The position numbers were made by a program, and so were the translations under genes. Shown piece by piece: positions 70 to 48,420 of a stretch of 59,226 nucleotides of DNA. Source of the stretch: Alphaproteobacteria bacterium. Lineage in GTDB: Bacteria; Pseudomonadota; Alphaproteobacteria; Rs-D84. Numbering within the stretch: position 1 is the stretch's first letter; every line of letters begins with the position of its first letter. The stretch spans positions 1-59,226 of the forward strand of contig JAFURS010000044.1 in the NCBI GenBank assembly GCA_017471805.1, given 5' to 3'. The notes beneath the pieces are model-generated. The model was not told the origin of the DNA. It saw only the letters and a list, made by a program, of their open reading frames with translations, and did no database searches.

Positions 70-3000
70 TTATGCCCGTCCCAGATTCTTACAAAACTCA
101 CCAAGAGTCTTGGTATTTTCGCAGGGGCCCATCAGCCTGTATCCTGCACTGGAATCTTTGTTTACACTATATGACACTTTCCCACCTGATACCTGTGTGC
201 TGGAATTTGATATTACAGGCGTTGTTGAAATTGCATTTCTGGCGTTGGCGATGGTTGTTCCGTCAACACCGGCACTGATTGCCTGATTTGCTGCATTATT
301 CAGTGCTAATTCTGCACTGACCGTGTCTTTCCTTGACAGAGAATCCAACGCCAGGTTGGCGGATGTCACGCATTGTTTTGCGGCCTCTTGTTTTGCCTTT
401 TGACTGTTGTTCGACTTTTTGCTGTCTTTTTTGATTTTGCCAGTCAGACCGCTAAATACGTCGCCGCTCTGGATGCCGGCACCCAGATATGAGCCACCAA
501 CACCACCACCAACCGTCCCCAGGACCGTTATCCAATCCTGCATATCACCATATCTTTCCTTGCGTTCGGCACGGGCTTCCTTGGCGACTTTGTTTGCAAG
601 GGTTTCTAGTTCTGATGTTGGTATCCAAGAACCACACGTAAATGTGTCGCCCGCCGCAAAGTATGCTGTTGACCAATCCGCACCGTCAAGCAGGGCCTGG
701 TTTATTTCACGGTCGTCAGACTGTAATGTCACACGAACACGACAGAATGAACCATACAAATCATTACTGGCCACGAATTGGTTTGGTTTCAGACCCGCAA
801 CTGAATAATTTGCAGGAACACGACCGCCACGCAGTTTTGCCCACAAGAACGTTGAACCCATATCGTTTTTGCCAATAATGCCACCATTGTTGTATGACAT
901 ACACATATTTTGCTGTTTGGTTATTTTGGCGTTATATTTAGCCTGGGCCTCTATCTCTAAATCATAAATCAGGTCTTTGAACAGGGTGTTCGCCGCCTGG
1001 GTTTCAACATAGGTCGTGAACGACATCATAACTGGTGTTTCAAATGTGCCACACGATGCGTCCGTGCTGGCCGTGTAGCATATACCCTGGTTGCCACATT
1101 TATCAGAACATAATTTATTGCCGTTTTCGTCGGTGGCCTGGACTTCTTGGGTGGTGCCGGTCATTTTTGATGTTGCACCTGCGTCAATCCATTCAGAACG
1201 GACCGAACCCGTTGTACCCCAACCGGTGTTGCGGCTGTTGTCGATTTTGTATTTGTTTGCCTCTATCGCCAGGTGTTCAGAGCATACATCGGCATTTTTA
1301 ACCGTGTCGATACACAATCCCAATACAATTGTGTAATCCAGAACCCCACCAACCTTGTTCATAGATTTATCAAATTCGTCGTCATCACTGTTTGTTAATG
1401 ACGAATAAATGTCTGTGCGGTTGCGATAGCAATTTACAAAATCCGAACCACAATTCGCACGAACACAAGATGTCGCAACAGACTGGCACTGTTTTTTCAT
1501 TTGCGCCAGGGCCGCATCACTGTAATTATTCGCCAATGCAGAATTTAACGACGCAATTACACCAATTGGATCGGCATTTGTTGTGATATCGTATTCAGGG
1601 AACAACGTGTCAAATGCATCCGCCTGGATAAATGAATAATTATATGTGCCGGTTTCATTTGGATTCTGGGCCGCATATTTACAATTTGCATCGGTGTTAA
1701 CAATCGCCTGGCATCCGGTTTTGATTTCATTACGGCTGTATTCGTTGTTGATAGATTTATCGGTATCGCCAAAAACCTGGGCATAGCAGGCCGCACCAGA
1801 ACCGCCACCACATACACGCATTGCACACGATTTAATCGTTTCAATACATTTTTCTTTGGCACGGGTGTCAAATTTATTGACCAGGTCGGTAATTTTTGCC
1901 TTCATCCCGGAATTATAACGGGCGCCATATGCCAGGTCATATATTTCTTCCTGGTTATCTTCGTCACGCAATTGGGATGATGTCGGCATTTGGCCGTCGC
2001 CAATAAATGTTGCATAACAATATTTATTTGAACCAATTGTGTCCTGGCAAGAATTTTTGATGTATGCCGAAACGTCCGACTTGCTGATAACCTGGGTCAC
2101 GTCAACGTTTGTTGCAACATCGGCCCCATTGTTAATCGCATCAACCAATTCAACCGTTTCAGCCGTCGAATTTTCATAGCACTTGTATGGATTTGCCGTG
2201 CAGGCATTTAATATACACTGGTCAACAACCTTGTAACAGGTAGACACCGCATTAACAGCCGCCAGGGCCGCACCTTCGGCAATCATTTCGCCAATACGAC
2301 TGGACGCAGATGGCGTCGCCGTCATAGATGCCGTGCCAAATAATTCGAGCAAACCATCCCCTTGGCAACGGGCCAGGGTCGAATCACAAAATACACGTTG
2401 TTTCTTGAACTCGCTATTAGTGGTGCATAATTCAAAGTCATTGCCACAAACACTGTCTTTGCGCAGACAAGACGAATAACGACGAACACAAGCCGATGTG
2501 TCATATTTATTTTCAATCGCCGCCGCAGATATCATTTGTCCCAAAACACTGCCATCAGTTGGGTATGTGTATTCAGTTATTTCGCCATAGGTGTTTTTTG
2601 TCGCAACCGTATTCAGGGCCGAAATATTCGATGTACCAAACAGACTGTTCACACCCGACGATGAACACTGGGCCAAGGTGGATAAACACTGGGGCATTTT
2701 GCCGTGGAATAAAACCTTGGTCGTGCATTCTTCGAGACCAGAACCACAGGCGTCGCCACCCTTGATACACTGGGTATATGCGTCGATACATTCAGCATTT
2801 GCCAACAACGTTGACGTCGTCGTCGATGAACCGCCCGTTGTGGTCGTCGAACCAGTTGCGCCAGTAATGAACGCAGTCATCGTCGGCATACGACGGGCCG
2901 TCGATGAATTTATCACACTGGGACGTGCCGTGACCGCATACGCCGCAGGTATTACGCTGAATAACGCCAATAAACTTACCGTGTTTTTGAGAAATGACAT
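70..3000 (-). CDS. Cysteine-rich secreted/surface protein of unknown function (976 aa)
   Basis: It is the dominant ORF here and has a signal peptide (MSFLKNTVSLLALFSVIPAAYA) followed by a Thr/Ser-rich linker. There are at least 5 copies of a C-x6-C-x4/6-C-x6/7-C module (ECIDAYTQCIKGGDACGSGLEEC, ACVRRYSSCLRKDSVCGNDFELC, TCYKVVDQCILNACTANPYKC, KCIETIKSCAMRVCGGGSGAAC, QCQSVATSCVRANCGSDFVNC). A Gly-rich hydrophobic segment (WITVLGTVGGGVGGSYLGAGI) lies near the C-terminus. A GGAG RBS precedes the start. Confidence 0.6.
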   Translation of the reverse strand: MSFLKNTVSLLALFSVIPAAYAVTARPSVINSSTARRMPTMTAFITGATGSTTTTGGSSTTTSTLLANAECIDAYTQCIKGGDACGSGLEECTTKVLFHGKMPQCLSTLAQCSSSGVNSLFGTSNISALNTVATKNTYGEITEYTYPTDGSVLGQMISAAAIENKYDTSACVRRYSSCLRKDSVCGNDFELCTTNSEFKKQRVFCDSTLARCQGDGLLELFGTASMTATPSASSRIGEMIAEGAALAAVNAVSTCYKVVDQCILNACTANPYKCYENSTAETVELVDAINNGADVATNVDVTQVISKSDVSAYIKNSCQDTIGSNKYCYATFIGDGQMPTSSQLRDEDNQEEIYDLAYGARYNSGMKAKITDLVNKFDTRAKEKCIETIKSCAMRVCGGGSGAACYAQVFGDTDKSINNEYSRNEIKTGCQAIVNTDANCKYAAQNPNETGTYNYSFIQADAFDTLFPEYDITTNADPIGVIASLNSALANNYSDAALAQMKKQCQSVATSCVRANCGSDFVNCYRNRTDIYSSLTNSDDDEFDKSMNKVGGVLDYTIVLGLCIDTVKNADVCSEHLAIEANKYKIDNSRNTGWGTTGSVRSEWIDAGATSKMTGTTQEVQATDENGNKLCSDKCGNQGICYTASTDASCGTFETPVMMSFTTYVETQAANTLFKDLIYDLEIEAQAKYNAKITKQQNMCMSYNNGGIIGKNDMGSTFLWAKLRGGRVPANYSVAGLKPNQFVASNDLYGSFCRVRVTLQSDDREINQALLDGADWSTAYFAAGDTFTCGSWIPTSELETLANKVAKEARAERKERYGDMQDWITVLGTVGGGVGGSYLGAGIQSGDVFSGLTGKIKKDSKKSNNSQKAKQEAAKQCVTSANLALDSLSRKDTVSAELALNNAANQAISAGVDGTTIANARNAISTTPVISNSSTQVSGGKVSYSVNKDSSAGYRLMGPCENTKTLGEFCKNLGRA

Positions 3001-3162: not shown

Positions 3163-4122
3163 TTAAATGGATTCAAGGATACATTTCAGTTCTTGCATAT
3201 CGTCGGGCAGGCGGGTCTTGAAACGCATTTGTTCGCCAGTTATCGGATGCGCAAATTCCAGAACTTCGGCGTGAAGCATCTGGCCGTTGTGTTCACGCAA
3301 AAATTCTAGTAAATCCGTATCACGAACCGTCCCCAGACGGGTCGCACCACGACCATAAAGCGGGTCACACAATACTGGGAATCCGTGCGCCGATAAATGC
3401 AGGCGTATCTGGTGCGTGCGACCAGTGAACAATGTGCAACGCATCTGGGACACCTTGGCACGGGGCCAGGCGTTTATAACCGCAACCTCGGTATGGGATG
3501 GTTTGCCACCTGTTTTTACCATTGCCATTTTCTGACGGTTGCGTGATGAACGGGCAATGTTGCCGGTGATGTCGGCAACCTCCCAATTAGGTAATCCCCA
3601 GGTAAAGGCAATGTATTTTCGGGTCAAATCGTGTTCTGAAAATGTTTTTACCAGCGCACGAAACGCAGCGTCTGATTTCGCAAAAACCATTACACCGCTG
3701 GTGTCTTTGTCCAGACGATGAACAACCCCAGGACGGGTCACACCGCCCAGTGCCGATAAATGCGTGTGCGCCAAGATGTTTTGAACCAAGGTGCCTGTCT
3801 TGTTCCCAGCAGACGGATACATAACAACACCACGGGGTTTGTTTATAACAATTATGTCGTCGTCTTCGAATAAAATATCTAGGTCAAAATCAGATGATAT
3901 GTTTTCGGTCGCAACATCTGTTGTTGGGGTTGGTATTTCAACCGAAAAACCATCGCCGTGACGGATTTTCTCGGAAAATTTTACAGAGGTGCCATCAAGA
4001 CGTTGAACGGGAAATCGCTGAATCTCGCTGCGTGAAAATTCAGGCATTTTGCTAGATAAAAATTTATCAAGGCGGGTTATCTCGTCGTTTTCAGATACAA
4101 TAAATTCACGAATTTCAACCAT
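3163..4122 (-). CDS. rluD: RluA-family 23S rRNA pseudouridine synthase (RluD-like) with N-terminal S4 domain
   Basis: It has the catalytic motif HRLDKDTSGVMVFAKS and the conserved HQIRLHL. The 319 aa length fits the family. Confidence 0.85.
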   Translation of the reverse strand: MVEIREFIVSENDEITRLDKFLSSKMPEFSRSEIQRFPVQRLDGTSVKFSEKIRHGDGFSVEIPTPTTDVATENISSDFDLDILFEDDDIIVINKPRGVVMYPSAGNKTGTLVQNILAHTHLSALGGVTRPGVVHRLDKDTSGVMVFAKSDAAFRALVKTFSEHDLTRKYIAFTWGLPNWEVADITGNIARSSRNRQKMAMVKTGGKPSHTEVAVINAWPRAKVSQMRCTLFTGRTHQIRLHLSAHGFPVLCDPLYGRGATRLGTVRDTDLLEFLREHNGQMLHAEVLEFAHPITGEQMRFKTRLPDDMQELKCILESI

Positions 4123-4131
4123 TATAAAAAC

Positions 4132-4590
4132 CTATTTATATTCATCCCAATCAGGTCCAACATCACAATCCGACAGGTCAATCGTTAATTCACGACCGTC
4201 ATCCGACACAGGACACGTTAAAATGCCAGTCGTTGTTGCCTGGTCTGCGTCACGGGTGGCGTTGCGATACGCAAACTTGATTTCAGTCGGCGCCGCAACA
4301 CACGCAATGTGTAAATCATTATCAGTCGTGCCATCGGGACCAACCCAAACACGAACACCATAGCCCAATCCATAACACGGAAAACCGTCCAGATAATATA
4401 AAACCAGGCCACGACCAACTAATTTTTTATCAGAAATAAATTTTCCATTATATTCATTCAACGTCAGGCCAGTCACAGCCTGCCAGTCGGTGCTGGTAGA
4501 AAAGATGCTGATTCTGGGGGACGGGGCGTCCGCCGCATTCCCAGACGACACGGCAAGCGTTAAAAAAATTAAAGCAATCAGTTTTTTCAT
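4132..4590 (-). CDS. Small secreted protein, unknown function (152 aa)
   Basis: It has a Sec signal peptide (MKKLIALIFLTLAVSSGNA|AD) and four Cys. Its start overlaps the upstream gene's stop by 4 nt (4587-4590). It is the last gene of the prepilin-like operon. Confidence 0.6.
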   Translation of the reverse strand: MKKLIALIFLTLAVSSGNAADAPSPRISIFSTSTDWQAVTGLTLNEYNGKFISDKKLVGRGLVLYYLDGFPCYGLGYGVRVWVGPDGTTDNDLHIACVAAPTEIKFAYRNATRDADQATTTGILTCPVSDDGRELTIDLSDCDVGPDWDEYK

Positions 4591-5120
4591 TCTTGGTCCC
4601 CCTGGGGCAGTTGTAATTCAGACAAGTGTGCAGAAATCTTTTTTACACCCGCCGGTTGCGCCGATAGCATATGCGAAAAATTAACACTGGCCCCGGAATC
4701 CAACAATGTAGCAGATGGTAAAAACTTCTGCTGAGCCAACACACGACCGTCTTGGTCGGTGGACACAATTATCAGGTCGGGAACCCCATAAATCTCGTCC
4801 GAGATGTTCGTCACAGAACCAGATACAACCAAGTGCTGAACACCCGCTTCGTCAGTTATCGTTTCAACCCCAGATACAGATGCAACCAATGGACCACGAC
4901 TGACCGTCTTTGCCTGGTGGTGGGTGATGACCGCAACCGTAAATATTAGCGCAGACAGCAATGCACAAAGAGATGCAAAAAACATCAGCCACGAATTTTT
5001 ACGTGGTGGCGCAGATACAACCCAAGTGTTGCCACAAACAGCACACTTAACCGCAGAATTTGGACGTTCGTCCAGTGTATATTCTGTTTCACAAAAATCA
5101 CATTTTATTTTCATATTCAC
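4587..5120 (-). CDS. MJ0042-type zinc-ribbon membrane protein with DUF3426-like C-terminal domain
   Basis: The N-terminus CDFCETEY...CAVCGNTW is a CxxC...CxxC zinc ribbon. One TM helix (WLMFFASLCALLSALIFTVAVI) is followed by a beta-rich periplasmic domain resembling DUF3426. Confidence 0.65.
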   Translation of the reverse strand: MNMKIKCDFCETEYTLDERPNSAVKCAVCGNTWVVSAPPRKNSWLMFFASLCALLSALIFTVAVITHHQAKTVSRGPLVASVSGVETITDEAGVQHLVVSGSVTNISDEIYGVPDLIIVSTDQDGRVLAQQKFLPSATLLDSGASVNFSHMLSAQPAGVKKISAHLSELQLPQGDQE

Positions 5121-5134
5121 ACTTATACCATATT

Positions 5135-6451
5135 TTATTCTAAATTCAACAGCCGATATTTTTCCGATACACGGGTCTGAATTTCACGTATTGCGTTCAT
5201 ATAGTCCGCAACCGTGGCGTTCTTGTTCGCAGATACAGAACCAAATATCTGGCCGGAAATTGTTGATTTGTCGCCTTCGCTTATCATCGCAAGGGTCGCC
5301 ATACGATTTAACTCGACAAACGATGCGTCAACAAAATTTGCACGGCTTGATGACGCATCCCAATAATAGTCGGCGTTCACAGAATCTTCGATACGGTCAT
5401 ATACAACCAGACGTGGGGTCATAGAACCTGTAAATCCAACAGAAACAAACATTGCGTCAATTCGGCCCGCCGTTATATCAAGTGCCTGGTTGATTTTTAA
5501 TAGCGCAAGGTCGTCTTTGGCACTGACCGACAGGCCGCCCAGCGTCAAATTCGAAACCCATAAATTCTTGGCCGTCAGGGACGACATTTTTCCTAAATCT
5601 AATAGAGTTAACTGGCCCGACACTTCTAGATTCTTGGCATCAGACGACAACATACCCGCAACAGTTGCAGATGTAGCAGTAAAGCCGTTGCTGATTGCAG
5701 GTCGGTTTGTAAATATCATATCTGTGGATACAGATTCCTTGACCGACAGGCCGTCTGTAAATTCGGCATAGTCCGAATTAAAATACTTTACATTAACCAG
5801 GTCGTGACCACCCAGATTTAGCGCAGACATCATTTTCGCATCGTCTGGATTGTTTGACGGAACACGCCATAAATATAATGCACTGTCACGATTTACAGCC
5901 GTCGTTTCTATAATCGCATTATCCAGGTCAACCCCCATATCAACCGTGTCTGTGTGCCAGGCCCCAAATGTCCCATAGGCGTGCGTGCCGTCAACAAAGC
6001 CCATTGTGCCACCTGATAAATTTACAATTTCACGTGTTCGAAGTGGTGTTATATCTTCGGATGCACGGACAACAACCCCTTGCAAGGTTGATGCGCCGGT
6101 CGAATCCGCAGACTTTAAAATACGCAGTTGATATTTTTCATCGCCCTGGGATAAAACAGATTCAGGCACACCGTATTCAGCCAAGTCTGATAAACTTACA
6201 CGGGTTATGTTGCGACCAACGGTTCGTAATAACTCGGGCCGGTTCGCAATTATATAACGTTCCAGTGCAACCTGAATTTCGGTCATCTGGTTGGCAATTG
6301 CAATATTCTGGGCCCGTATAACCGCCGCCTGTTGATAGCGGAATACATATGGTATTATCAGTGCCGCCAGCGCAACACTTAACAATAACTCAACCAGCAT
6401 ACTGCCGGATGTTGAATTTTTATTTGCAAAGATTTTTGTTCGATTCTTCAA
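5135..6451 (-). CDS. Giant prepilin-like protein (438 aa), class III signal peptide
   Basis: The N-terminus is MKNRTKIFANKNSTSG|SMLVELLLSVALAALIIPYVF, with Glu at +5 after the Gly and a roughly 20-residue hydrophobic helix. It shares its leader and N-terminal half with ORF 6471-7703. Confidence 0.65.
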   Translation of the reverse strand: MKNRTKIFANKNSTSGSMLVELLLSVALAALIIPYVFRYQQAAVIRAQNIAIANQMTEIQVALERYIIANRPELLRTVGRNITRVSLSDLAEYGVPESVLSQGDEKYQLRILKSADSTGASTLQGVVVRASEDITPLRTREIVNLSGGTMGFVDGTHAYGTFGAWHTDTVDMGVDLDNAIIETTAVNRDSALYLWRVPSNNPDDAKMMSALNLGGHDLVNVKYFNSDYAEFTDGLSVKESVSTDMIFTNRPAISNGFTATSATVAGMLSSDAKNLEVSGQLTLLDLGKMSSLTAKNLWVSNLTLGGLSVSAKDDLALLKINQALDITAGRIDAMFVSVGFTGSMTPRLVVYDRIEDSVNADYYWDASSSRANFVDASFVELNRMATLAMISEGDKSTISGQIFGSVSANKNATVADYMNAIREIQTRVSEKYRLLNLE

Positions 6452-6470
6452 GCCCCGATCCTGTATTGTT

Positions 6471-7703
6471 TTATTGCGGCAAAACCGATTGGATTGTATT
6501 TGGTGCCGATATTGTTTCTTGCCAGCCGGAACGCATTAGTGGACCAAACGCATTGCGTGATGGCATTGACGGTGTTTCGGCACGTGATAATGTGAACTTG
6601 GAAAACTGGGGCGGCTTGGTCGATGGAAATACCCATTTGCCTATCTTGATAGGCGACGTGGTTGACATTAACAATTCCCCAGATACGGTTAATCCAAAAT
6701 TTTCATAGAATATCATTTCTTCGGCAGATATAAATGGCGCAATCACAGAATTTACAGCCACACCTGTAAAACCACTGATTGTGTTTGATGTGTCAGATTT
6801 CAAAACCAGATTATTACCAATGTTTATTTTATCTGTTATTGAAACACGGTCCGATATAACACGCCCAAATGTCGTAAATTTATTGCCGTCGTTTATACGG
6901 GCAGAACGGACATTTCGGAACCCAGACATATCGCCCGATACACGCAAATCACCAAAGGCCACATCCTGGCCGTCGATGTTCGCCCCAGATGAAAAATAAA
7001 TCGTATCTGAAAATACATCATCTGCTGTGACAAAGGTTGTGTTCGCATTTTTTATTCGGGCAGAATCTGCAAATATTGTCGCAACGTTATATATATGATG
7101 ATGCGCCATATCCAGGTCACGTTGCATTACGTTTAAGCCATCTTCGCCGGATGTTCCACGATGCAGATATTTAGATGTGTCTTCACCAGAAACATCACGT
7201 GATATACGATATATTAAATCGCCCGAGATAAAATCAGGCGCAGATACCGCCCAGGTATTACCATACGCAACTGAATCATCGCCAACAACCGCCGCATCAC
7301 CACCAATATGACGGGCAATCTTGTTCGCATTTATTTGCGATTTAGACAATTCAAACGCCAGATAAACATCAGTCACAAACGCACCATTTACAGCATACTT
7401 ATCAACAAAACCAGCGGCGGCATCAGGACTGATTGTAGCAAGTTCTGTTTCATCAAGTTTAATCTGGGCAACATCAGGCCACTTGTCCTGATTCATACGA
7501 ATAAAATTCAATACATCATCACGGACAGACATTATATGACGGGCCGTTGTTATATCTGATATCGTCTGATTCGTTAGTGAAATTTGATTATAGACAAACG
7601 GGGCGGCAACCGCAATGATTGCCATCGCCAGTAAAACCTCTAGGATACTGGCACCAGATGAATTGTTATTAAAAATCTTGGACCTAGATACAGTCACTGC
7701 CAC
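6471..7703 (-). CDS. Giant prepilin-like protein (410 aa), class III signal peptide
   Basis: The N-terminus is MAVTVSRSKIFNNNSSG|ASILEVLLAMAIIAVAAPFVYN, with Glu at +5. It contains the shared internal motif YLHRGTSGEDGLNVMQRDLDMAHHHIYNV. Confidence 0.65.
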   Translation of the reverse strand: MAVTVSRSKIFNNNSSGASILEVLLAMAIIAVAAPFVYNQISLTNQTISDITTARHIMSVRDDVLNFIRMNQDKWPDVAQIKLDETELATISPDAAAGFVDKYAVNGAFVTDVYLAFELSKSQINANKIARHIGGDAAVVGDDSVAYGNTWAVSAPDFISGDLIYRISRDVSGEDTSKYLHRGTSGEDGLNVMQRDLDMAHHHIYNVATIFADSARIKNANTTFVTADDVFSDTIYFSSGANIDGQDVAFGDLRVSGDMSGFRNVRSARINDGNKFTTFGRVISDRVSITDKINIGNNLVLKSDTSNTISGFTGVAVNSVIAPFISAEEMIFYENFGLTVSGELLMSTTSPIKIGKWVFPSTKPPQFSKFTLSRAETPSMPSRNAFGPLMRSGWQETISAPNTIQSVLPQ

Positions 7704-9039
7704 CTGCCATTAAACATTGTTTTATATTTATTCGTTTTTCCAGACGCTGCCAATATACATACTGGCATATCAAATATTGCGACAAGGATTGTTTGTTATA
7801 TGCGCCATCATATTTTTTTATTATCGTTTCACACGGTGTTGTTTTAGCATCGTCGGATGACGGCGATTCCAGAATAGAAAATGAATCATTATTTATTCCA
7901 TCCAGCCATATGTCCGGCAACAATGTTGTGCCACCTGGACGTATATCAAGAATTACCGCACCCGAACGCCCCGAACTTAACGCATTAGACGTCTGGTCAC
8001 GAACAGTAATATTTGATGTATAGATTGTTCCAACCTCTATCCCTGATTTTGCACTGTAATCCAGACTTTCGCCGTCGATAAATACGTCCTGGCCACGGGT
8101 GACATTTATAAACGACGACACATCAAGACGCTCAACACTGAAATTTATATGATCAGACACAACATTACCGTGAACAAGCCAATTGCCCGGTCCTGCAAAT
8201 GCGGTATGCCCCGCCGTCATAGATATTTCATACAACGAAACATCGTCGGCGGTAAAATTCCCAGTATCACCAAACGTTGATATCGTGCGAACATTTGCAT
8301 TACCCGTGCGCAACGTGCCACGTGTCAAAGACAAGGCGGATTCGCCATCCCTGCTTTGGAACACTGCCTTGGTCGCAGACATCTTTTTTATTTCATTGCG
8401 GGCATTTTTGCCGGATTCAATACCGGAAATTGTCAAAGTATCAAACTGGGCCGAATTAAATTCGCCACGAACTGCAAACAAATTACCAACACCATTCAAA
8501 CTAAATTTCCCCATATCCAGGTCTGATAAAAAACCACTGTTTTCAAGATTCGGTTCATTGCGACGAACGACGTCTGAATAAATGTCGGTCAATTCAATAC
8601 CAACACGGACATTTTCATCAACTGTATTTGCATAAAAACCAATACGACGAGCCAATTCGGAACGGGCCAATTCAGATAAATCGCCGCCGGTCAATTCCAG
8701 ATACGCAGACACAGACATTGGTGTTTTATGAATAACAAGTGATATATCCTGGCCCAGGGCGGTGCGTGGCACAAACCCCAGCGGCAAACCATATGGTTCA
8801 AGCAAATCAGAAAAATCATCCCCAGACACAATAGTTGTATCATATGGTATGTCACGGGCATTTTCACGAATAAATATACGGGCCGCCGTTTGCGCAACAT
8901 CAACCTGGCGGGTGGCGGAATACATTCGGGCATCAGTTTCACGCCCAACAATATTGCGGGTTAAAAACGGTATAAACGCAAAAATCAACCCCAGGGCCAG
9001 CAAGGCTTGAAGTAAAAAATTTCCACGTTCTGAATACAA
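7684..9039 (-). CDS. Giant prepilin-like protein (451 aa), Gln at +5 (cap/minor-pilin-like)
   Basis: The N-terminus is MYSERG|NFLLQALLALGLIFAFIPFL. It contains the shared internal motif VVRRNEPNLENSGFLSDLDMGKFSLNGVGN and has Cys residues near the C-terminus. It overlaps the next gene by 20 nt. Confidence 0.6.
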   Translation of the reverse strand: MYSERGNFLLQALLALGLIFAFIPFLTRNIVGRETDARMYSATRQVDVAQTAARIFIRENARDIPYDTTIVSGDDFSDLLEPYGLPLGFVPRTALGQDISLVIHKTPMSVSAYLELTGGDLSELARSELARRIGFYANTVDENVRVGIELTDIYSDVVRRNEPNLENSGFLSDLDMGKFSLNGVGNLFAVRGEFNSAQFDTLTISGIESGKNARNEIKKMSATKAVFQSRDGESALSLTRGTLRTGNANVRTISTFGDTGNFTADDVSLYEISMTAGHTAFAGPGNWLVHGNVVSDHINFSVERLDVSSFINVTRGQDVFIDGESLDYSAKSGIEVGTIYTSNITVRDQTSNALSSGRSGAVILDIRPGGTTLLPDIWLDGINNDSFSILESPSSDDAKTTPCETIIKKYDGAYNKQSLSQYLICQYVYWQRLEKRINIKQCLMAGGSDCI

Positions 9040-9182
9040 GGTTCTACCCTCCTACCTGTTCAAGAATAGCAACAGAAAAAAATTATTGCAATCAGTTTTA
9101 AGTTGTTTTAATATTAACAGCGTTAAGCATAACAACAATAGTAGTTGTTATTAAGATTATTTCCTGTTGAAAAAGAAAAGAT

Positions 9183-9506
9183 ATGCAAAATAAAAAAAAC
9201 CAATCCAACGTCGGACAGATGATACAGCGGTGCCATAAATGGCGTCAAAAAAGAAAACAATATATCGATCAGGCACGTCAAACCGCCGATGAAATCGAAC
9301 GTGAACGTCTGTTGCAGACTGCAGAACACTATGGACGTATGGTTAATGCCGAACAAGGCAAGATAGATTTAACACGTGACCCAAAAGATAAAAGCGCAGC
9401 CGCAGAAATTGAAAACGCCACACAGGCCGATCAAGGCGCAGAAAACCCAGATTCACAAGATGACGAAGAACCTGGATTTCCAGACTTTATTACAAATCTG
9501 AAATAA
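9183..9506 (+). CDS. DUF4167-like small basic/acidic protein
   Basis: The motif YIDQARQTADEIERERLLQTAEHYGRM resembles the conserved alphaproteobacterial DUF4167 core (...AEHYFR...). A hairpin terminator follows. Confidence 0.55.
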   Translation: MQNKKNQSNVGQMIQRCHKWRQKRKQYIDQARQTADEIERERLLQTAEHYGRMVNAEQGKIDLTRDPKDKSAAAEIENATQADQGAENPDSQDDEEPGFPDFITNLK

Positions 9507-23041: not shown

Positions 23042-24112
23042 TTATGTAAGTGCAGATGTAATCTGGTCCTGCATTTGGAATGTCCCCAGAACAACCCAGG
23101 CAATTATCCCAGATACAAGCAAAATCCCCAAACTGTTTAGTGTGTTTGATATTTTTTCCATCTTGCGAACAGATTCGTTCAGATAGTCATTCGCAATTTG
23201 ATTCAAATTTGAATCAAATTCATTCATATCAGCATAAATTGTTAAGTCACCAATTATTTCTTCGTCTGGAAAATTACGACCAATATGCGTCAAGGCAACC
23301 CCAAGATTGTCACCGTTGGCAATATGACGAAGCGCCGCATCAAGAATACTGCGCAGATAACGATTTGCACTGTCGGCCAACATACGCATCGCATCAGGAA
23401 TCGCAACCCCAGAACCAACCATTGCCGCCAATGACATTAACCAACCAACAGATACCTGAATCTTATAAATATTCCACGGGGGCAATTTATCAAAAATTAC
23501 ACGCAGACGTCCCGACCAATTCGCCATACTTAGCCATATTACAGATACAATAACTGCAAAGACAACCAAAAACAGATACCAATACTGAATCGAAAATTCA
23601 GACAGCCATACCAACGACCGGGCGGCACCACGCCACACAACACCGTCACCAGCAATTTCTGCAAGCGGTGGAACAAGGTAAAGGCCAACCATTATAATTA
23701 TTCCAAATGTCAATGCCAGCAAGAACATAGGATAACCAATCGCTGATGACATCGCACGACGAATCCGCTGGGTCCCAGATACAACACGACCAACATTTTC
23801 CAGCGCAATAACCAGATTTGATAAATTACCACTTGTGACCAGTAATGTTTCATTTAATGGAACCCAGCCACGGGTAGCCTCGGAAAAAGTCATACCACGT
23901 TCCAGATTCTGTTGCCATTGGCGCATTACAATCGCAAAGGGTTCGTGCGGTTTTTTGCCATTTTTGGATTCAATCATTTCCAGACGTTCCAAGGCATCTA
24001 TCAGTGTAAAATCATTGCGCAATAATGACGCCAGTTTGCGACATATGGCCATACGCTTTTCCGTGTCCAGTCTGAAAACAAGTTTGGCATACAACAGTTC
24101 AAGTTTATTCAT
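23042..24112 (-). CDS. GspF/PilC-family inner-membrane platform protein (R64 PilR-like position)
   Basis: It is a polytopic membrane protein with the duplicated T2SS-F architecture. Its start overlaps the ATPase stop. Confidence 0.8.
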   Translation of the reverse strand: MNKLELLYAKLVFRLDTEKRMAICRKLASLLRNDFTLIDALERLEMIESKNGKKPHEPFAIVMRQWQQNLERGMTFSEATRGWVPLNETLLVTSGNLSNLVIALENVGRVVSGTQRIRRAMSSAIGYPMFLLALTFGIIIMVGLYLVPPLAEIAGDGVVWRGAARSLVWLSEFSIQYWYLFLVVFAVIVSVIWLSMANWSGRLRVIFDKLPPWNIYKIQVSVGWLMSLAAMVGSGVAIPDAMRMLADSANRYLRSILDAALRHIANGDNLGVALTHIGRNFPDEEIIGDLTIYADMNEFDSNLNQIANDYLNESVRKMEKISNTLNSLGILLVSGIIAWVVLGTFQMQDQITSALT

Positions 24113-24113
24113 A

Positions 24114-25751
24114 CTAATACGCCCCCGGCTGATCAAGTTGGCCGACCCAACGTTCAAGTTCATCAACACTGATTATGCCCTGCAACATTAGCGAGGTGGC
24201 GGCCTCTTTCAACGTGCGACCGTCCATTTCTTCTAACCAATAACGAACGGCACCGTCGGTGTTCCCAGACAGGGCAAGACGTAAAAATTCACTGTTTGTG
24301 ATAATAATTTCCCCTGCCTTGACACGACCAATTGTGCCGGACCCCTTGCAATGAGGGCAACCGGGGCCACGCAGATAAACCTGCGAAATGCCGATTTCGC
24401 CATACGCATCCATTACACGACGATATGCGCCACGTTCAGGATGATTCGACAAAGGTTCACGACAATGCGGACAGACCTTTTTGAACAGGCGCATAGACAC
24501 CAAACCACGCATCAAGGTTTCTTCTTTTAACTTAAAAGATTCAACCCCCAGGTCAAGCAGACGGGTCAAGGCCGCCATAGCAGAATTTGCGTGCAGAGTT
24601 GTCCAAACATTATGACCAGACAATGCGCCACGGACCGTTAATTCCGCCGCAGCCAATGTGCGAATTTCGCCAACCATCAAGGTGTCAGGGTCACTGCGCA
24701 AGGCGGCGGCCAGTGCTTCGACATATTTTTCTTCACGTTGTTCTTCGCTGGTGGTGTTGACCACAGGCATTTGACGGGCGCCAAAAATCTTTTGTTCTAC
24801 GGGATTTTCAACCGTTATCATATTTATTTCGTAATTATGTTCCTTTAACATCAGGGACATATTGCGGACAAGTGTTGTTGATTTACCAGAACTGGTGGGA
24901 CCCGCCACAATTACCAGACCGGTTGGAAATGAACGCAGGCGTGCCAATAAACGCTGTTCATAGGGGCCAAATTCTTGTTCTGTCTTGATACCTTCGGACG
25001 GATTGTCATACAGCAGGCGCATAACCGCATAACGTGTTCCAAATGCAATCGGATTAAACTGCATACGGACCGCCAATACACCCGACGGCAGATATAAATC
25101 CTTGGTCCCACGCAGGGGGGTGCGACCGTCTTTCTGGGCAGACTGATATTCATTAACGGCATAGTTGACATTTGATATATCAGATGACGCAAATGCAGCA
25201 CGTAAAAATGTCTCGCCCCAGTGGGTGTTGTATTCCATAACAGGTTGCATACTGCCGTCAATACGAAAGAATATTGTTGTTTGGTCGGCAACCTCGATAT
25301 GAATATCTGATACCTTTTGAGATGCAGCCTTGGCAATTATGTCAACAAAGTCTTTTTGCATCTGGTTGTCAAAGTCAGAACGATTGCTACCACCAGAACC
25401 AATATGCATTTCATTTGATTTGTATATGTTTGAAATCAGCCCCAGGTCAGAATAAAATGGCGAACGCATCCGACGACCACGACGACGCAATAATTCTAAA
25501 AATGATAACACACGGCCGTCATAGCGGTGCGTGCGTGATATTATTATTTCCCCACCAGAAAAATACGCAATCAGATTCTGGGTGTCACGGGGCAATTCAA
25601 GAACAGAACCCGTCGCCGTCAAAAGACGATTCCCATTAGAAAACAGATAGTCGATTATGTCCTTGGATTCAGAATTTTCCAGACCCGCCGGAATAGACGG
25701 CTGGTCAGTAATGTCAACAAATTCTGAATTTTCTGATTTCGTGCGCACCAT
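24114..25751 (-). CDS. GspE/PilB-family type II/IV secretion ATPase (R64 PilQ-like position)
   Basis: It has the Walker A GPTSSGKSTT, the Walker B region DTLMVGEIR, the His box GHNVWTTLHAN, and the tetracysteine CPHC...CPHC. Confidence 0.9.
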   Translation of the reverse strand: MVRTKSENSEFVDITDQPSIPAGLENSESKDIIDYLFSNGNRLLTATGSVLELPRDTQNLIAYFSGGEIIISRTHRYDGRVLSFLELLRRRGRRMRSPFYSDLGLISNIYKSNEMHIGSGGSNRSDFDNQMQKDFVDIIAKAASQKVSDIHIEVADQTTIFFRIDGSMQPVMEYNTHWGETFLRAAFASSDISNVNYAVNEYQSAQKDGRTPLRGTKDLYLPSGVLAVRMQFNPIAFGTRYAVMRLLYDNPSEGIKTEQEFGPYEQRLLARLRSFPTGLVIVAGPTSSGKSTTLVRNMSLMLKEHNYEINMITVENPVEQKIFGARQMPVVNTTSEEQREEKYVEALAAALRSDPDTLMVGEIRTLAAAELTVRGALSGHNVWTTLHANSAMAALTRLLDLGVESFKLKEETLMRGLVSMRLFKKVCPHCREPLSNHPERGAYRRVMDAYGEIGISQVYLRGPGCPHCKGSGTIGRVKAGEIIITNSEFLRLALSGNTDGAVRYWLEEMDGRTLKEAATSLMLQGIISVDELERWVGQLDQPGAY

Positions 25752-25754
25752 ATT

Positions 25755-26453
25755 TTATTTTCCGTTGCTGATGTTCAAATTCTGGGTTTTGCCATCGGAA
25801 TCTACAAAAACAACCCCGTCGTATAGCGATATAGATTTTACAGTCAAACCATCCAGTGTGCGACCAACACTAATGCGTTTGCTTTGACCGGTTTTCAAAT
25901 CTTCGATTGTTGCTTGTAATTGTGAGCCAGCACCAATAACATTTACCAAACGGTATTTCTTTGTTATATCAGCAGAGGCGTCTTCGTCGTCGTCATCGTC
26001 ATAGGTTTTCGATGATTTAGATGACTTTTTGTCGTCCTCTTCTTCCATTTTTGCCAGCCAGGAATCTTTCTCTTTTTCGATACGGGCGGCTTCGGCTTCT
26101 AGTTTTGCCTTTTGGGTTTCAATTTCCTGTTGCTGTTGTTCGGCACGGCCGGACAGTGTGTCAATTTCCATATGCAACTTAATCTTTTCAGCCGCAAGTC
26201 TGTCCAGTTCCAAATCCAATTGCGCACGTTCTTTTTCCAACTGCATAAGAACTTTTTCCTGTTCCAGGTCGGTTATCTGTTGAAACAAGGAACCGTCAAC
26301 ATCATAATCTGCAACCGCATCGGCAGACGCCTGTTCCAGGTCAATGTCCAAGACTTCTTCTGCGACAACAACATCGGCACAATGACCAACATTTACAACA
26401 GATAAAATGCCACAGAATATTAAACCAATTAAAAATTTGCCGTTATTTTGCAT
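25755..26453 (-). CDS. PilP-like coiled-coil periplasmic protein
   Basis: It has a signal sequence, a long Glu/Gln-rich coiled coil, and an acidic linker (DDDDDED). The C-terminal beta-domain (YRLVNVIGAGSQLQATIEDLKTGQSKRISVGRTLDGLTVKSI) resembles plasmid-type PilP. It is translationally coupled on both sides. Confidence 0.45.
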   Translation of the reverse strand: MQNNGKFLIGLIFCGILSVVNVGHCADVVVAEEVLDIDLEQASADAVADYDVDGSLFQQITDLEQEKVLMQLEKERAQLDLELDRLAAEKIKLHMEIDTLSGRAEQQQQEIETQKAKLEAEAARIEKEKDSWLAKMEEEDDKKSSKSSKTYDDDDDEDASADITKKYRLVNVIGAGSQLQATIEDLKTGQSKRISVGRTLDGLTVKSISLYDGVVFVDSDGKTQNLNISNGK

Positions 26454-27705
26454 AGATTACTACCTCATAGTTCCAAGAACGTGAACGAACGTCCCACGAT
26501 GCCTGCATCAGATAAACGCCGCCAAATTCATCAAATATTTTCATAAACTGGGTTGGGATAAGTTTCGATGTGGCCCCAACTTCGACCACAGGGGTGGTCG
26601 CAATATCAACCCCGTTCGTCAGGGTGTCAATTACAACCTGGGTTTGGACAGGTGTATCAACCGACTGAAACAATGTCGTCACATCACGGACAACAGTGTC
26701 TGGGTCACGCTCGTCCTGGGAAGAATACACGTCCAGGGCCGGCAAGGTCGCACGAACACGCAATGTATCTTCGTCGATTTCTTCGACAAATGATGCCGGC
26801 ATTAAACCAGTTGCAATTTCATAAAATTCGCCAATTGTGCCAAAACTGCGCTGAAATTCAGCAGTGACGTGTGTTTCGCCGCACGTCGCAGAAACCTGAT
26901 TCCAACCAACAATTGGTTGCATTACAAAACCAATTGCCTGATAACACTGGGCGGCACGGTCCGCAACGTTTGGCAACAATTCGTATGGCATAACAATCGG
27001 TTCAGGTGGCAGTGTTTTTTCAATCTGGTATTCCTGGTCCAGTTTCTTGCTGCTTTCTTCGATTTGACGTTTGTATTCAGCAACTAATTCAGGGTCCAGT
27101 TTTGCAACCTGGGGACGTGGGGAAAAGGCCTGACGAATAGAATCGTGAAATATCAACCCTAACACCAGTGCAAATACACCCAACAATATCAAGGACACCA
27201 TACCGGCCCCCAGATAACTTATCGGGCGCAAAACAGCACGTGAACGACCACTTAACAAATCCGACAAATTACGTTCGGCGGCACGGGGCATACCCCACGA
27301 AGATGGCGCAAAAAACGCACCCCAATCAGGAATTTCAGATAATTTTACATATTCGGTGCGGGCGTCCGCTTCGGCATCAAAAACAGAATCTGCCAGAATT
27401 ATGCCATTGCGGGCCGCAACCAGATAATAATTTTGCCCGGTATAAAACACCGCTAAAAATGATGTGTATTCTGAAAAACTTTCCATCACTTCGGCCGCCG
27501 CACTGACCGTGCCAGAACGAACACCATTGCGACGTGACGCCAAACCAACCATACCACGGTATTCGGTGTAAAGGGTTAATTTCTTGTCAATATTCCTGGA
27601 TAAACTGCGGGCATAGGCACGGGACGCAAAACCCGCCCCAATTGGTTGCCACAATAAACCAACTGCGTATTTTTTACGGTTAACTGATATAAAATTATTG
27701 GCCAA
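26443..27705 (-). CDS. Type IVb PilO/PilO2-like bitopic membrane protein
   Basis: The N-terminal motif KKYAVGLLWQP, a single central TM helix, and its position before the PilP-like and ATPase genes support the call. The start is placed at the TTG at 27705, after GAGAGAGAG; the ORF could extend to 27750. Confidence 0.45.
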   Translation of the reverse strand: MANNFISVNRKKYAVGLLWQPIGAGFASRAYARSLSRNIDKKLTLYTEYRGMVGLASRRNGVRSGTVSAAAEVMESFSEYTSFLAVFYTGQNYYLVAARNGIILADSVFDAEADARTEYVKLSEIPDWGAFFAPSSWGMPRAAERNLSDLLSGRSRAVLRPISYLGAGMVSLILLGVFALVLGLIFHDSIRQAFSPRPQVAKLDPELVAEYKRQIEESSKKLDQEYQIEKTLPPEPIVMPYELLPNVADRAAQCYQAIGFVMQPIVGWNQVSATCGETHVTAEFQRSFGTIGEFYEIATGLMPASFVEEIDEDTLRVRATLPALDVYSSQDERDPDTVVRDVTTLFQSVDTPVQTQVVIDTLTNGVDIATTPVVEVGATSKLIPTQFMKIFDEFGGVYLMQASWDVRSRSWNYEVVIYAK

Positions 27706-27738
27706 TGAAACTCTCTCTCGACTGAATATTCTGGTGTA

Positions 27739-27747
27739 ATTATAACA
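27739..27747 (-). promoter_or_regulatory. Extended -10 element (TGTTATAAT) upstream of the PilO-like gene
   Basis: The minus strand reads TGTTATAAT about 35 nt upstream of the proposed TTG start. Confidence 0.35.
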
Positions 27748-27787
27748 CAAAAAATCGAACTAAGGCAAATAATAATAAAAGACTTTA

Positions 27788-27813: not shown

Positions 27814-29028
27814 TTACATACGTGGACCACGCATAGGATTCATTCTTTGACCAGTGTTTGTTGATGTCTGGCCAACACGACCAACAATAATCTTGTCCCC
27901 CATTTCGATTTCATCCGATATGACTTCTGTTTCGGTGGCCGTGACCAGACCCTTGGTATAAGGGATAAAAACAACGTCGCCGTCACGCATAATCGCCAGA
28001 TGTGATGCAGGTGTGGCCCCGTTGATTTGTTCAGGGTCCAAGAAACGGTCAAAACTGCGGACCAAAAATGCAGAATTTGCCGCACGCCACGCATTTTCAC
28101 GTTCGGATATAACAATCGTCACAAACGCAGTCATACCCGGCATAAGACGCAAGTCTGTATTATCAACGTCAATCACAACCGTATAAACAACAACGTTGGA
28201 TGTTGTCGTTGGCGACAGGCGAACCTGACGAACAATACCATCAAATGTTTCACTGGGGTATGCATCAACAGTAAATGTGACAGGTTGACCTTCTTGGATG
28301 ACACCAATGTCAGCCTCGGATACGGCGGTTTCGATTTGCATTTTTGTTAAATCTTCGGCAATTTCAAACAAGTCGGGCGTCTGGAAAGATGCAGCAACAG
28401 TTTGACCAACGTCAACCTTGCGTGAGATTACAGTCCCATCAACCGGCGAAGAAATCGTTGCATAACCCAAATTTGTCACCGCACGATCATATGTCGATTG
28501 CGCACGCTTTACAGACTGTTCAGACTGTTCATATTGGGTTTGTTTTTGTTCCATTTCTGCACGTGAAATAAAACCTTCGTTATACAGCATTTTATCACGT
28601 TCATATTCACTTTTTGCGAAATTGCGTTGGGAAATCGTGCTGTCCAGTGACGCCTTGGCTTCGTCAACGGTGGCCTGTAAAACAGACGGTTCAATCGTTA
28701 ATAAAACATCGCCCTTTTTTACCTTGGAATTAAAATCTACATACAGGTTGTCAATTGTGCCAGATACCTGGGAACCAACATTGACGGTATTAACCGGCTG
28801 AATTTCACCGGTTGCAGTCACAACCTGGCGCAGGTCGCCACGGGTTATATTTATTGTGATGTATTCTGGTGCGCCAGTCGATGCACCACCAAAAATCAAA
28901 CGCAGTGCAACCAATACAGCGGCAACTAATAAAATCCACCATTTCTTGCGCCATATAAATGACCAAATACGACGAATAAACGAAGGCCGTTTTTGAAGTG
29001 GGGTTTTATTATTGTTTTTCTTGCTCAT
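27814..29028 (-). CDS. macA: HlyD-family periplasmic adaptor (MacA-like)
   Basis: It has an N-terminal TM anchor, a lipoyl/coiled-coil hairpin/beta-barrel layout, and motifs ATGEIQPVNTVNVGSQVSG and YATISSPVDGTV. Confidence 0.85.
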   Translation of the reverse strand: MSKKNNNKTPLQKRPSFIRRIWSFIWRKKWWILLVAAVLVALRLIFGGASTGAPEYITINITRGDLRQVVTATGEIQPVNTVNVGSQVSGTIDNLYVDFNSKVKKGDVLLTIEPSVLQATVDEAKASLDSTISQRNFAKSEYERDKMLYNEGFISRAEMEQKQTQYEQSEQSVKRAQSTYDRAVTNLGYATISSPVDGTVISRKVDVGQTVAASFQTPDLFEIAEDLTKMQIETAVSEADIGVIQEGQPVTFTVDAYPSETFDGIVRQVRLSPTTTSNVVVYTVVIDVDNTDLRLMPGMTAFVTIVISERENAWRAANSAFLVRSFDRFLDPEQINGATPASHLAIMRDGDVVFIPYTKGLVTATETEVISDEIEMGDKIIVGRVGQTSTNTGQRMNPMRGPRM

Positions 29029-32130: not shown

Positions 32131-32158
32131 AAAAATCCCCAATTTGGGGATTTTTATT
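32129..32158. terminator. Bidirectional terminator
   Basis: AAATCCCCA-ATT-TGGGGATTT is flanked by A-tracts and T-tracts. Confidence 0.7.
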
Positions 32159-48401: not shown

Positions 48402-48420
48402 TTTTTACACCATTTGTCTT

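Follow-up and report, generated by a model that had tools for sequence, protein, structure and literature searches.

Three consecutive genes for large prepilin-like proteins, alike in their N-terminal halves and unlike in their C-terminal halves, raise the question of whether their products replace one another at the tip of a pilus or work there together. They belong to Candidatus Enterousia (Rs-D84), a gut bacterium with a tiny genome: in this group genomes span 0.75–1.0 Mb and dependence on a partner, presumably obligate, has been predicted (PMC12306168), and the literature on Candidatus Enterousia holds no report of type IV pili. The window, i.e. the whole stretch of DNA analysed, is 59 kb long and represents 6–7% of the genome; what we say of the presence or absence of genes covers this window. 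The locus is chromosomal and lies amid housekeeping genes, apart from the pilus machinery. The three genes (a slash marks the end of the leader peptide) and the leader in front of them are:

9040..9182, minus strand: intergenic leader between P1 and the divergently oriented orf107/dnaX, carrying a Shine-Dalgarno sequence
7684..9039, minus strand: P1, PilV-superfamily prepilin-like protein of 451 aa; 6-residue leader MYSERG/N..., Gln+5, Pro+18
6471..7703, minus strand: P2, PilV-superfamily prepilin-like protein of 410 aa; ...SSG/ASILE, Glu+5, Pro+18
5135..6451, minus strand: P3, PilV-superfamily prepilin-like protein of 438 aa; ...TSG/SMLVE, Glu+5, Pro+18

The first-pass annotation had described three tightly packed minus-strand ORFs of 451, 410 and 438 aa, and these ORFs and their spacing are as it stated: the start of P2 overlaps the stop of P1 by 20 nt, and a gap of 19 nt separates P2 from P3. 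P1 starts with TTG, P2 with GTG (gene callers choose starts yielding 408 or 401 aa). The AGGAGG in front of P1 is the one strong Shine-Dalgarno sequence of the P1-P2-P3 cassette; together with the overlap and the short gap it indicates that the three genes are co-expressed, and this translational coupling points to co-assembly as well. The leader is likely the promoter region of the cassette; its sigma-70-like matches are weak, not above shuffled expectation. As for the term “giant” applied to these proteins, it holds relative to major pilins but not for minor pilins of the PilV/TcpB type (PilV 429 aa, TcpB construct 25–423).

A six-frame scan of the window for the class III-type motif (G, x4-E/Q, hydrophobic run) finds it in P1, P2 and P3 only. 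The N-termini and motif strings first quoted, with Gln+5 in P1 against Glu+5 in P2 and P3, are all present, and the signals are kept in orthologues from 17–30 species, as xxxERG/NFLLQ for P1 (whose N-terminus is conserved across 25 orthologues), RG/ASIxE for P2 and RG/SMLVE for P3. In the P3 family, 141 representative clusters, nearly all members open with leader-G/xxLxE, and G-1, E+5 and P+18 are near-invariant over these 141 representatives. Gln+5 is confined to the P1 of the Enterousia group: the P1 orthologues of two distant lineages, L039 and L042 (GC 29–35%), keep Glu+5. For P2 the Pfam N_methyl model gives 16.3 bits, under its cut-off.

Are the three proteins related to each other? By BLASTP the pairwise similarity is weak (E about 0.01; N-domains about 20–25% identical). 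Profile comparison by hhalign is more telling: 97% probability for P2-P3 (E 4e-11, 259 columns), 91% for P1-P3 (E 1e-6, 224 columns) and 70% for P1-P2 (E 4e-5), with alignments that superpose the second block YLxR...M..L....I.N. The N-terminal ~200–300 residues are thus, as judged from profiles, homologous, and the shared N-terminal half proposed at first is real. The C-halves compared alone reach a probability below 1%, with no detectable similarity; the first description of them as unrelated holds too.

The resemblance to PilV and the shufflon also proves to be homology. P3, which of the three comes nearest to Shufflon_N, scores 26.5 bits against this Pfam model (E 5.8e-6, residues 52–257), just missing the gathering cut-off of 27.5. 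A phmmer search with P3 reaches bona fide Shufflon_N proteins: of 75 diverse members of the family, 10 are of this kind, with a best E of 3.8e-74. A tblastn search of 72,556 plasmids with P3 gave, among the matches listed (15 of 54 records), 14 annotated PilV and one “hypothetical protein”, all over the globular region and about 23% identical to plasmid PilV. The profile HMMs of P1, P2 and P3 each select plasmid PilV, not the major pilin PilS: the P3 family HMM with 33.6 bits, in the globular region, that of P1 at 15.4 bits against annotated PilV, and that of P2 through many P3-superfamily members and the PilV YLxR..M block. Pfam Shufflon_N itself matches neither P1 nor P2 directly, and P1 matches no Pfam or NCBIfam model; in the distant L039, the P1 orthologue (P0352) has both a precomputed Shufflon_N match and Glu+5. 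Altogether, these sequence comparisons place P1–P3 as divergent members of the PilV/Shufflon_N superfamily, that is, as predicted type IVb minor (tip) pilins. The module had been offered as undescribed; membership of this superfamily and a size of 410–450 aa, usual for the family, speak against this, and P1–P3 are no new protein class.

AlphaFold2 predicts for P1 and P3 an alpha1 helix of about 50 residues followed by an alpha-beta head. In P1 the helix spans residues 8–59 and the confident head 67–148, residues 153–372 being of low confidence and unreliable; in P3 (mean pLDDT 75) the helix covers 14–69, and after it come the head, a middle part rich in beta structure and, at 379–434, a C-terminal helical bundle. 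The pilin architecture is thus a prediction of the two models, neither of which has a significant fold match in the PDB; Foldseek and profile searches there gave no significant hit to TcpB, CofB or any pilin.

An assembly module lies 14 kb from P1–P3, in the gene order of R64 (pilO-pilP-pilQ-pilR):

26443..27750, minus strand: PilO (R64/type IVb PilO2 family); Pfam PAP_PilO E 8.8e-12, 27% identity to plasmid PilO2
25755..26453, minus strand: PilP (type IVb PilP family); NCBIfam TIGR03021 pilP_fam 34.8 bits, above the 34.65 cut-off
24114..25751, minus strand: PilQ-type assembly ATPase (T2SSE/GspE superfamily); Pfam T2SSE E 8e-62
23042..24169, minus strand: PilR-type inner-membrane platform protein (T2SSF/GspF superfamily); Pfam T2SSF E 2.5e-22

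The tblastn matches of PilO are annotated “type 4b pilus protein PilO2”, and the ATPase and platform protein are 29% (E 1e-57) and 33% (E 1e-58) identical to plasmid type IVb PilQ and PilR respectively. The 59 kb encode neither a prepilin peptidase nor a secretin nor a small major pilin. The missing peptidase and pilin fold matches, together with a P1 that lacks both a family match and Glu+5, could mean that P1–P3 are not pilins at all but membrane or periplasmic proteins of the usual signal-anchored (type II) kind, with prepilin-like N-termini. We find this very hard to believe, given the near-invariance of G-1, E+5 and P+18 over a very diverse family, the specific homology to PilV that extends beyond the helix, the Glu+5 retained in distant P1 orthologues, the long predicted alpha1 helices with pilin-like heads and the type IVb machinery within the window. 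The lack there of any small pilin bearing a class III signal might instead indicate that one large protein, most likely P3, the most widespread and most PilV-like of the three, is itself the main subunit of a filament built at the 400-aa size, the small major pilin being absent from genomes of only about 900 genes. This is quite improbable: all characterised relatives, PilV, TcpB and CofB, are low-abundance minor pilins beside a major pilin of ~150–200 aa, and the missing major pilin rests on 6–7% of the genome.

Two more genes follow P3, as first described (a Zn-ribbon/DUF3426-like gene, then one for a secreted protein of 152 aa):

4587..5120, minus strand: membrane protein with a Zn-ribbon (MJ0042-type), a TM segment and a DUF3426/FxLYD-like part, from weak Pfam and NCBIfam matches
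4132..4590, minus strand: S152, 152 aa with a signal peptide; four invariant Cys in the alignment, dN/dS 0.10

The Zn-ribbon gene is co-oriented, begins 14 nt after P3 and is conserved in all cassette loci. In L039, however, it adjoins rluD on the opposite strand, and the pilin triplet is 3 kb away: its conserved partner is rluD rather than the pilins, and a functional link to the latter is doubtful. S152, whose start overlaps the Zn-ribbon stop by 4 nt, has no relative by PDB search; it could possibly be a periplasmic or secreted partner. A giant Cys-rich protein with a signal peptide is encoded downstream, as a neighbour of the cassette.

Could P1–P3 then cap a short periplasmic piston, in a pseudopilus like that of type II secretion, which would export S152 or the giant neighbour, instead of a long adhesive pilus? 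A conserved secreted protein and a giant signal-peptide protein downstream would suit such a device, as would the lack of a major pilin and a secretin in the window; the ATPase and platform protein score best against the GspE and GspF models, though far under their cut-offs, and a three-protein cap with one subunit devoid of Glu5 mirrors GspI-J-K. Besides, TcpF and CofJ are known to be secreted by type IVb pili by way of the minor-pilin trimer (PMC6048534, PMC9565799). At the opposite, PilO (PAP_PilO) and PilP (TIGR03021) are specific to type IVb systems; Pfam and NCBIfam searches for GspC, GspL, GspM, GspD, GspK, GspI and GspJ gave nothing above noise, P1–P3 matching neither GspJ nor GspK, and P2 matching GspI weakly (16.8 bits against a cut-off of 44). 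Moreover, neither L039 nor L042 has S152 next to its triplet, and the mature N-terminus of S152 is the variable part of the protein, unlike the conserved TcpF/CofJ-type signal. We consider a pseudopilus unlikely.

The gene order bears more directly on the initial question. The order P1-P2-P3, with one-to-one best HMM matches, recurs in ~35 loci of Enterousia/Rs-D84, as well as in L036-L038, L039 and L042, the last two being distant lineages; the short contig L043 has P2 and P3 matches in order, the first gene missing by the contig cut, and the P2 orthologue is the middle gene every time (L036-L039, L042, L043). In no locus examined does pilus machinery adjoin the triplet. The C-half of each paralogue, which in P1 includes four conserved Cys, is conserved as well as its N-half, with dN/dS of 0.12–0.17 in both halves, values that are approximate because dS is saturated (about 1.5–2).

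These data bear on the first interpretation of the locus, a shufflon hard-wired in three genes, whose interchangeable tip adhesins would give each pilus or cell one of three specificities. The constant-N, variable-C layout speaks for it, as do the homology to PilV, whose C-termini determine recipient specificity (PMC9045228), and the wider family, where the N-domain is constant and total length runs from 400 to 1600 aa; the C-terminal length of P3 itself differs between genera (422 to 653 aa). PilV of IncI/IncI2 plasmids and PAPI-1-type elements (R64, TP114; Shufflon_N, PF04917) is of the same superfamily and size class (429 aa) and has in common with P1–P3 the prepilin signal with Glu+5, the conserved N-terminal ~250–300 residues including the YLxR...M block, a divergent C-terminal module and an association with PilO/PilP/PilQ/PilR-type machinery. 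But plasmid PilV is one gene with invertible C-terminal cassettes, whereas Enterousia has three fixed paralogous genes, on the chromosome, apart from the machinery, without adjacent pilS, pilT or pilU, and with a P1 deprived of Glu+5; no shufflon inversion repeats (sfx-type) or recombinase (Rci) were found within the window. The N-domains of P1–P3 are not constant, the translational coupling implies simultaneous expression, and Gln+5, at the key assembly residue of P1, suggests a distinct structural role. Comparison of the loci thus indicates that P1, P2 and P3 are ancient, non-interchangeable paralogues. Their fixed order and the purifying selection on each C-module, which are the actual novelty of this arrangement, argue against alternative adhesins, to which we leave a small chance, and favour a heteromeric complex, presumably assembled from all three, for the tip or for initiation, in which P1 would be the cap.

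Such a complex of ancient PilV-family paralogues is the reading towards which we lean, with a confidence slightly above even. A prepilin peptidase with its gene in another part of the genome would cleave P1–P3, and the R64-type PilO/PilP/PilQ/PilR machine would then draw them out of the inner membrane. They would associate by way of the alpha1 helices as a heteromeric complex at the tip, priming pilus polymerisation. P1 would be tip-most, with P2 and P3, which have Glu+5, docked below. The loss of Glu+5 in the Enterousia P1 suggests that the salt bridge from Glu5 to an N-terminus, by which a subunit docks under another, is unneeded there and probably impossible, which would put P1 at the very tip. 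The GspK-type subunit, devoid of Glu5, sits on top of its cap (partly in PMC5207764). The likeness of P1 to GspK drawn at first is reasonable as a functional analogy, but not as kinship, no GspK-family match having come from the Pfam/NCBIfam searches. The GspI-GspJ-GspK cap and the type IVa PilV/W/X/FimU priming complex also consist of several tandem minor pilins, co-expressed and co-assembled at the tip; their subunits, however, are small (about 100–330 aa) and of other pilin families.

TcpB (V. cholerae TCP) and CofB/LngB (ETEC CFA/III, Longus) are, like P1–P3, large minor pilins with a pilin domain and extra C-terminal domains, although neither Foldseek nor profile searches detected sequence or fold similarity. 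They are tip initiators that can dock a secreted protein of the same operon and for which Glu5 is dispensable at the tip: TcpB initiates there without Glu5, and requires it for insertion into the growing pilus (PMC5207764). CofB and TcpB form trimers at the tip (PMC6048534, PMC9565799). These are homotrimers of one gene product; by analogy, a P1–P3 trimer may be hypothesised. The heteromeric tip, made from three genes, would correspond to the CofB/TcpB homotrimer and to the GspI-J-K cap, and it would present three different C-terminal modules side by side at the end of the pilus. If this is true, these modules would touch the partner cell or host surface that the bacterium, with its reduced genome, presumably depends on.

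The window is one complete contig from the MAG of an uncultured 'Alphaproteobacteria bacterium', and the genomes nearest to it in GTDB belong to Candidatus Enterousia. The first-pass annotation had placed three consecutive, tightly spaced ORFs on the minus strand, and both their positions and their spacing proved to be exactly as it had them. These ORFs encode the prepilin-like proteins P1, P2 and P3, and two further genes follow on the same strand:

7684-9039, minus strand: P1, 451 aa, TTG start
6471-7703, minus strand: P2, 410 aa, start inside the 3' end of P1
5135-6451, minus strand: P3, 438 aa
4587-5120, minus strand: Zn-ribbon/DUF3426-like ORF, downstream of P3
4132-4590, minus strand: S152, 152 aa with a signal peptide; its start overlaps the stop of the Zn-ribbon ORF

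The P1 and P2 ORFs share 20 nt, the next gaps are of 19 nt and 14 nt, and an AGGAGG stands ahead of the TTG start of P1 with a 7-nt spacer. The promoter scan gave matches no better than the shuffled expectation, and the terminator-like internal matches look like chance.

When the entire 59-kb window was scanned in all six frames for a class III-type motif (G/A/S, four residues, E/Q, then a hydrophobic run), P1, P2 and P3 alone were retrieved. The class III signal—a short basic leader, Gly, a hydrophobic segment of ~20 residues and Glu at +5—is kept in P2 and P3; P1 displays every feature of it, but with Gln at +5 instead of Glu. The N-terminal consensus of the orthologues is strongly kept for each paralogue (xxxERG/NFLLQ for P1, RG/ASIxE for P2, RG/SMLVE for P3); the scores for Pfam N_methyl and TIGR02532 lie under the respective cut-offs. 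Gln+5 was present in 25 of the 25 P1 orthologues inspected and also in the moderately distant loci L036 and L038; the P1 orthologues of the very distant L039 and L042 carry Glu at this position. The Gln+5 of P1 is a derived state in the Enterousia group, L036 and L038 included.

Pairwise BLASTP among P1, P2 and P3 is barely significant (E about 0.01, mostly within the helix), so that a profile-profile comparison was needed, with profiles built from the orthologues of each paralogue. P2 and P3 are then related at 97% probability (E 4e-11, 259 columns), P1 and P3 at 91% (E 1e-6, 224 columns), P1 and P2 at 70% (E 4e-5); the profile alignments superpose the second shared block of the first-pass annotation, YLxR...M. 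The C-terminal halves alone give a probability <1%. The initial observation of common N-halves followed by unrelated C-halves is thus confirmed, since the orthologue profiles relate while the C-halves do not. In the superfamily alignment (54-75 sequences) G151, R196 and M207 (YLxR...M), together with G-1, E+5 and P+18, are near-invariant.

This constant and variable layout had at first been likened to PilV, the tip pilin of plasmid shufflons, as an analogy; the searches raise the likeness to homology. P3 scores 26.5 bits against Pfam Shufflon_N over residues 52-257, one bit under the gathering cut-off of 27.5, and P1 and P2 have no match to this Pfam family. Precomputed matches to the same family (PF04917) exist on the orthologues P0001, P0334 and P0352, the last being a distant orthologue of P1, and 10 of the 75 diverse superfamily members prove to be genuine Shufflon_N proteins (best E 3.8e-74). 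An exhaustive phmmer search with P3 against 1.8 billion representatives returned 141 clusters, nearly all of which have a basic leader at the N-terminus, then Gly, xxLxE and a hydrophobic segment; these relatives reach a total length of about 400-1600 aa, and the match spans their first ~250-380 residues. One branch of the superfamily (L040:2056-5235, on another genome's contig, and the representatives P0227-P0260; ~1000-1600 aa) is known from short contigs and carries very long C-terminal extensions behind the same prepilin N-domain, QxGSMMVEA...

Among 72,556 plasmids, tblastn with P3 gave weak matches only, in 54 records; 14 of the best 15 fall under PilV genes, labelled 'shufflon system ... 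pilus tip adhesin PilV', and the remaining one under a 'hypothetical protein'. The plasmid PilV alignments span residues about 84-331 of P3, outside the hydrophobic helix. The family HMMs of P3, P1 and P2 match a PilV of 429 aa from a P. aeruginosa plasmid at 33.6, 15.4 and 13.7 bits respectively; PilS, the major pilin of the same plasmid, is matched by none of the three. The idea that P1-P3 form an undescribed class of tip proteins or adhesins is not supported; they are better regarded as putative type IVb tip pilins of the PilV type.

The AlphaFold2 model of P3, made from diverse alignments (mean pLDDT 75), presents a 56-residue alpha1 helix (14-69) and an alpha-beta head (pLDDT about 80-89); its middle is rich in beta structure, and a helical bundle forms the C-terminus. 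That of P1 has an alpha1 helix at 8-59, a head at 67-148 (pLDDT 81-91) and a confident C-terminal part, and is unreliable over residues 153-372. Foldseek comparison of both models with the PDB found no significant pilin match (best E 0.31 and 1.6), S. Typhi PilS appearing among the matches at E 3.7 only, and these searches assigned no fold to the C-terminal modules. The PDB sequence search with P3 and the profile searches with P1, P2, P3 and S152 yielded nothing beyond one marginal match, that of the N-terminal helix to geopilin; phmmer, PDB profile searches and Foldseek revealed no significant sequence or fold likeness to TcpB or CofB.

The triplet is kept well beyond the window. In 30 species-level loci the order, as far as each contig reaches, is dnaX (reading away) and orf107 on one side and P1-P2-P3, the Zn-ribbon gene, S152, rluD and a giant Cys-rich protein on the other, with an identity of 60-81% for P1, P2 and P3. 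The more distant L036-L038 have the same cassette, with a P3 of 422-653 aa. In L039, L042 and L043 (GC 28-35%) large tandem genes of the family stand among housekeeping genes: in L039 and L042 the first gene is matched by the HMM of P1, the second by that of P2 and the third by that of P3, with 171, 92 and 166 bits in L039, where the matches run on into the C-terminal part proper to each protein. The contig of L043 is short; its second and third genes match P2 and P3, and the first, cut by the contig end, is unassigned. The triplet is thus ancient, ordered and non-redundant. In L037:7275-8669 the P1 orthologue is split into ORFs of 183 aa and 266 aa, either through a frameshift, which would make it a pseudogene, or through a fault of the assembly.

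Within Enterousia the N- and C-halves are conserved alike: dN/dS for the N-half and the C-half is 0.119/0.116 in P1, 0.143/0.168 in P2 and 0.122/0.128 in P3, figures that are approximate as dS is saturated, and about twice those of DnaX and RluD. On this ground hypervariability or positive selection of the C-halves was rejected. In shufflons the C-terminal segments of PilV are switched through sfx repeats and the Rci recombinase, whereas P1-P3 have neither: between 4000 and 9300 only short, chance-level repeats were found, and no integrase or recombinase is present among the ORFs of the window. The first-pass proposal that the alternatives of a shufflon had been hard-wired as three paralogues is not supported; a heteromeric tip suits the conserved stoichiometric gene set better than a choice of alternative adhesins. 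P1, P2 and P3 are PilV-family prepilin-like proteins, co-oriented, translationally coupled and of fixed paralogue identity. The novelty lies in their arrangement, a conserved three-paralogue PilV-type module in a genome-reduced lineage of gut symbionts.

The neighbouring genes are less clearly tied to the module. The Zn-ribbon/DUF3426 gene is paired with rluD both in the window (3163-5120) and in L039 (3802-5297); the pilin triplet of L039 is 3 kb distant, on the opposite strand. The Zn-ribbon gene is probably linked to rluD and not to the pilins, because L039 pairs both genes away from the triplet; as a part of the pilin module it is unproven. S152 combines a signal peptide with four invariant Cys, and its mature N-terminus is Pro-rich and varies in length; with a dN/dS of about 0.10 the protein is better conserved than the pilins, and Pfam, NCBIfam and the PDB contain no relative. 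A secreted cargo like TcpF or CofJ was considered for S152 and set aside, given the lack of similarity, the variable mature N-terminus and the fact that L039 and L042 lack the gene beside the triplet; such a role is only a speculation.

Two other genes of the region deserve mention:

70-3000, minus strand: protein of 976 aa that has a signal peptide, a linker rich in Thr and Ser, and numerous repeats containing Cys
9183-9506, plus strand: orf107, a highly charged 107-aa protein, divergent from P1 and with dnaX on its far side

The former, which has no Pfam or NCBIfam match, is a candidate surface protein or adhesin; a homologue of 976-1239 aa is found just 3' of rluD in most pilin-cassette loci, L036-L038 included. 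Orf107 has no family match, and its identity is 68-100% in every locus reaching that region.

Type IVb assembly genes are also present in the window:

23042-27750, minus strand, as for P1-P3: pilO-pilP-pilQ-pilR, four genes

PilO is recognised by PAP_PilO (E 9e-12), PilP passes the cut-off of NCBIfam TIGR03021, and Pfam matches identify PilQ as the T2SSE ATPase and PilR as the T2SSF platform protein; the gene order is that of R64 and PAPI-1, with 27-33% identity to plasmid PilO2, PilQ and PilR. A secretin (PilN), a prepilin peptidase (Peptidase_A24, PilU), a major pilin (PilS) and a retraction ATPase were not found within the 59-kb window, some 7% of the ~0.9-Mb genome. The plasmid pilV gene sits inside the pil operon (pilL...pilS-pilT/U-pilV), whereas the P1-P3 triplet is outside any pil operon, 14 kb from pilOPQR and between dnaX and rluD, likewise in all related loci. 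Other envelope genes were noted on the same strand:

27814-30349, minus strand: MacA-like adaptor and TolC-like outer-membrane genes, directly upstream of pilOPQR
47184-49155, minus strand: MacB-like ABC/permease pair, 17 kb from the MacA/TolC-like genes
32154-34409, minus strand: VirD4/TraG-type coupling protein (T4SS-DNA_transf, TraG-D_C), alone among housekeeping genes

The lone VirD4/TraG-type gene hints at a type IV secretion system scattered in a reduced genome.

In type IV filaments the Glu5 of the incoming subunit neutralises the N-terminus of the previous one, so that the first subunit needs no Glu5. In TcpB, the changes E5Q or E5V still allow the initiation of pili and abolish the insertion into growing pili (PMC5207764). 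CofB and TcpB are tip trimers, which can dock the secreted CofJ and TcpF (PMC6048534, PMC9565799). On the Glu5 biology and this precedent we base the proposal that P1, P2 and P3 would co-assemble as a heteromeric complex that forms the tip or initiates the pilus, P1 being the cap with P2 and P3 beneath, and the three C-terminal modules being displayed jointly. The mechanism is a plausible hypothesis, and the heterotrimer remains putative, inferred as it is from the conservation of the three-gene module. The cap pseudopilin of the GspK type lacks Glu+5, as does P1 with its Gln+5; P1 itself has no Pfam or NCBIfam match to the T2SSK/GspK families.

Type IVb tip proteins such as PilV, TcpB and CofB set both the adhesion target of the pilus and the start of its assembly. 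To our knowledge, every case studied involves a single gene, acting as a homotrimer or through shufflon variants. If our proposal is true, the three-paralogue module would amount to a naturally heteromeric type IVb tip, in which capping, priming, triggering of retraction and receptor binding become testable as functions split among subunits.

The genomes of Rs-D84/Enterousia are of 0.75-1.0 Mb, without TCA cycle, respiration or standard transporters, and it has been proposed that these bacteria live off partner cells, as obligate symbionts or as parasites; type IV pili are not reported for them in that study (PMC12306168). That about 4 kb of tip-pilin genes and PilOPQR are kept in a genome of ~0.9 Mb makes them a candidate attachment device, and the purifying selection that maintains the module points to a function in contact with partner cells or with the host. 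A natural heterotrimeric type IVb tip with the Glu5-less P1 as its cap, to which each of the three ancient paralogues would bring a C-terminal module of its own, serving the partner-dependent Rs-D84/Enterousia and related low-GC lineages as their organelle of attachment to a partner or host, and which may work with VirD4-type secretion and/or deliver S152, is a tentative reading and, taken as a whole, a rather doubtful one. P1, P2 and P3 nonetheless provide concrete targets for localisation and for the identification of the partner.
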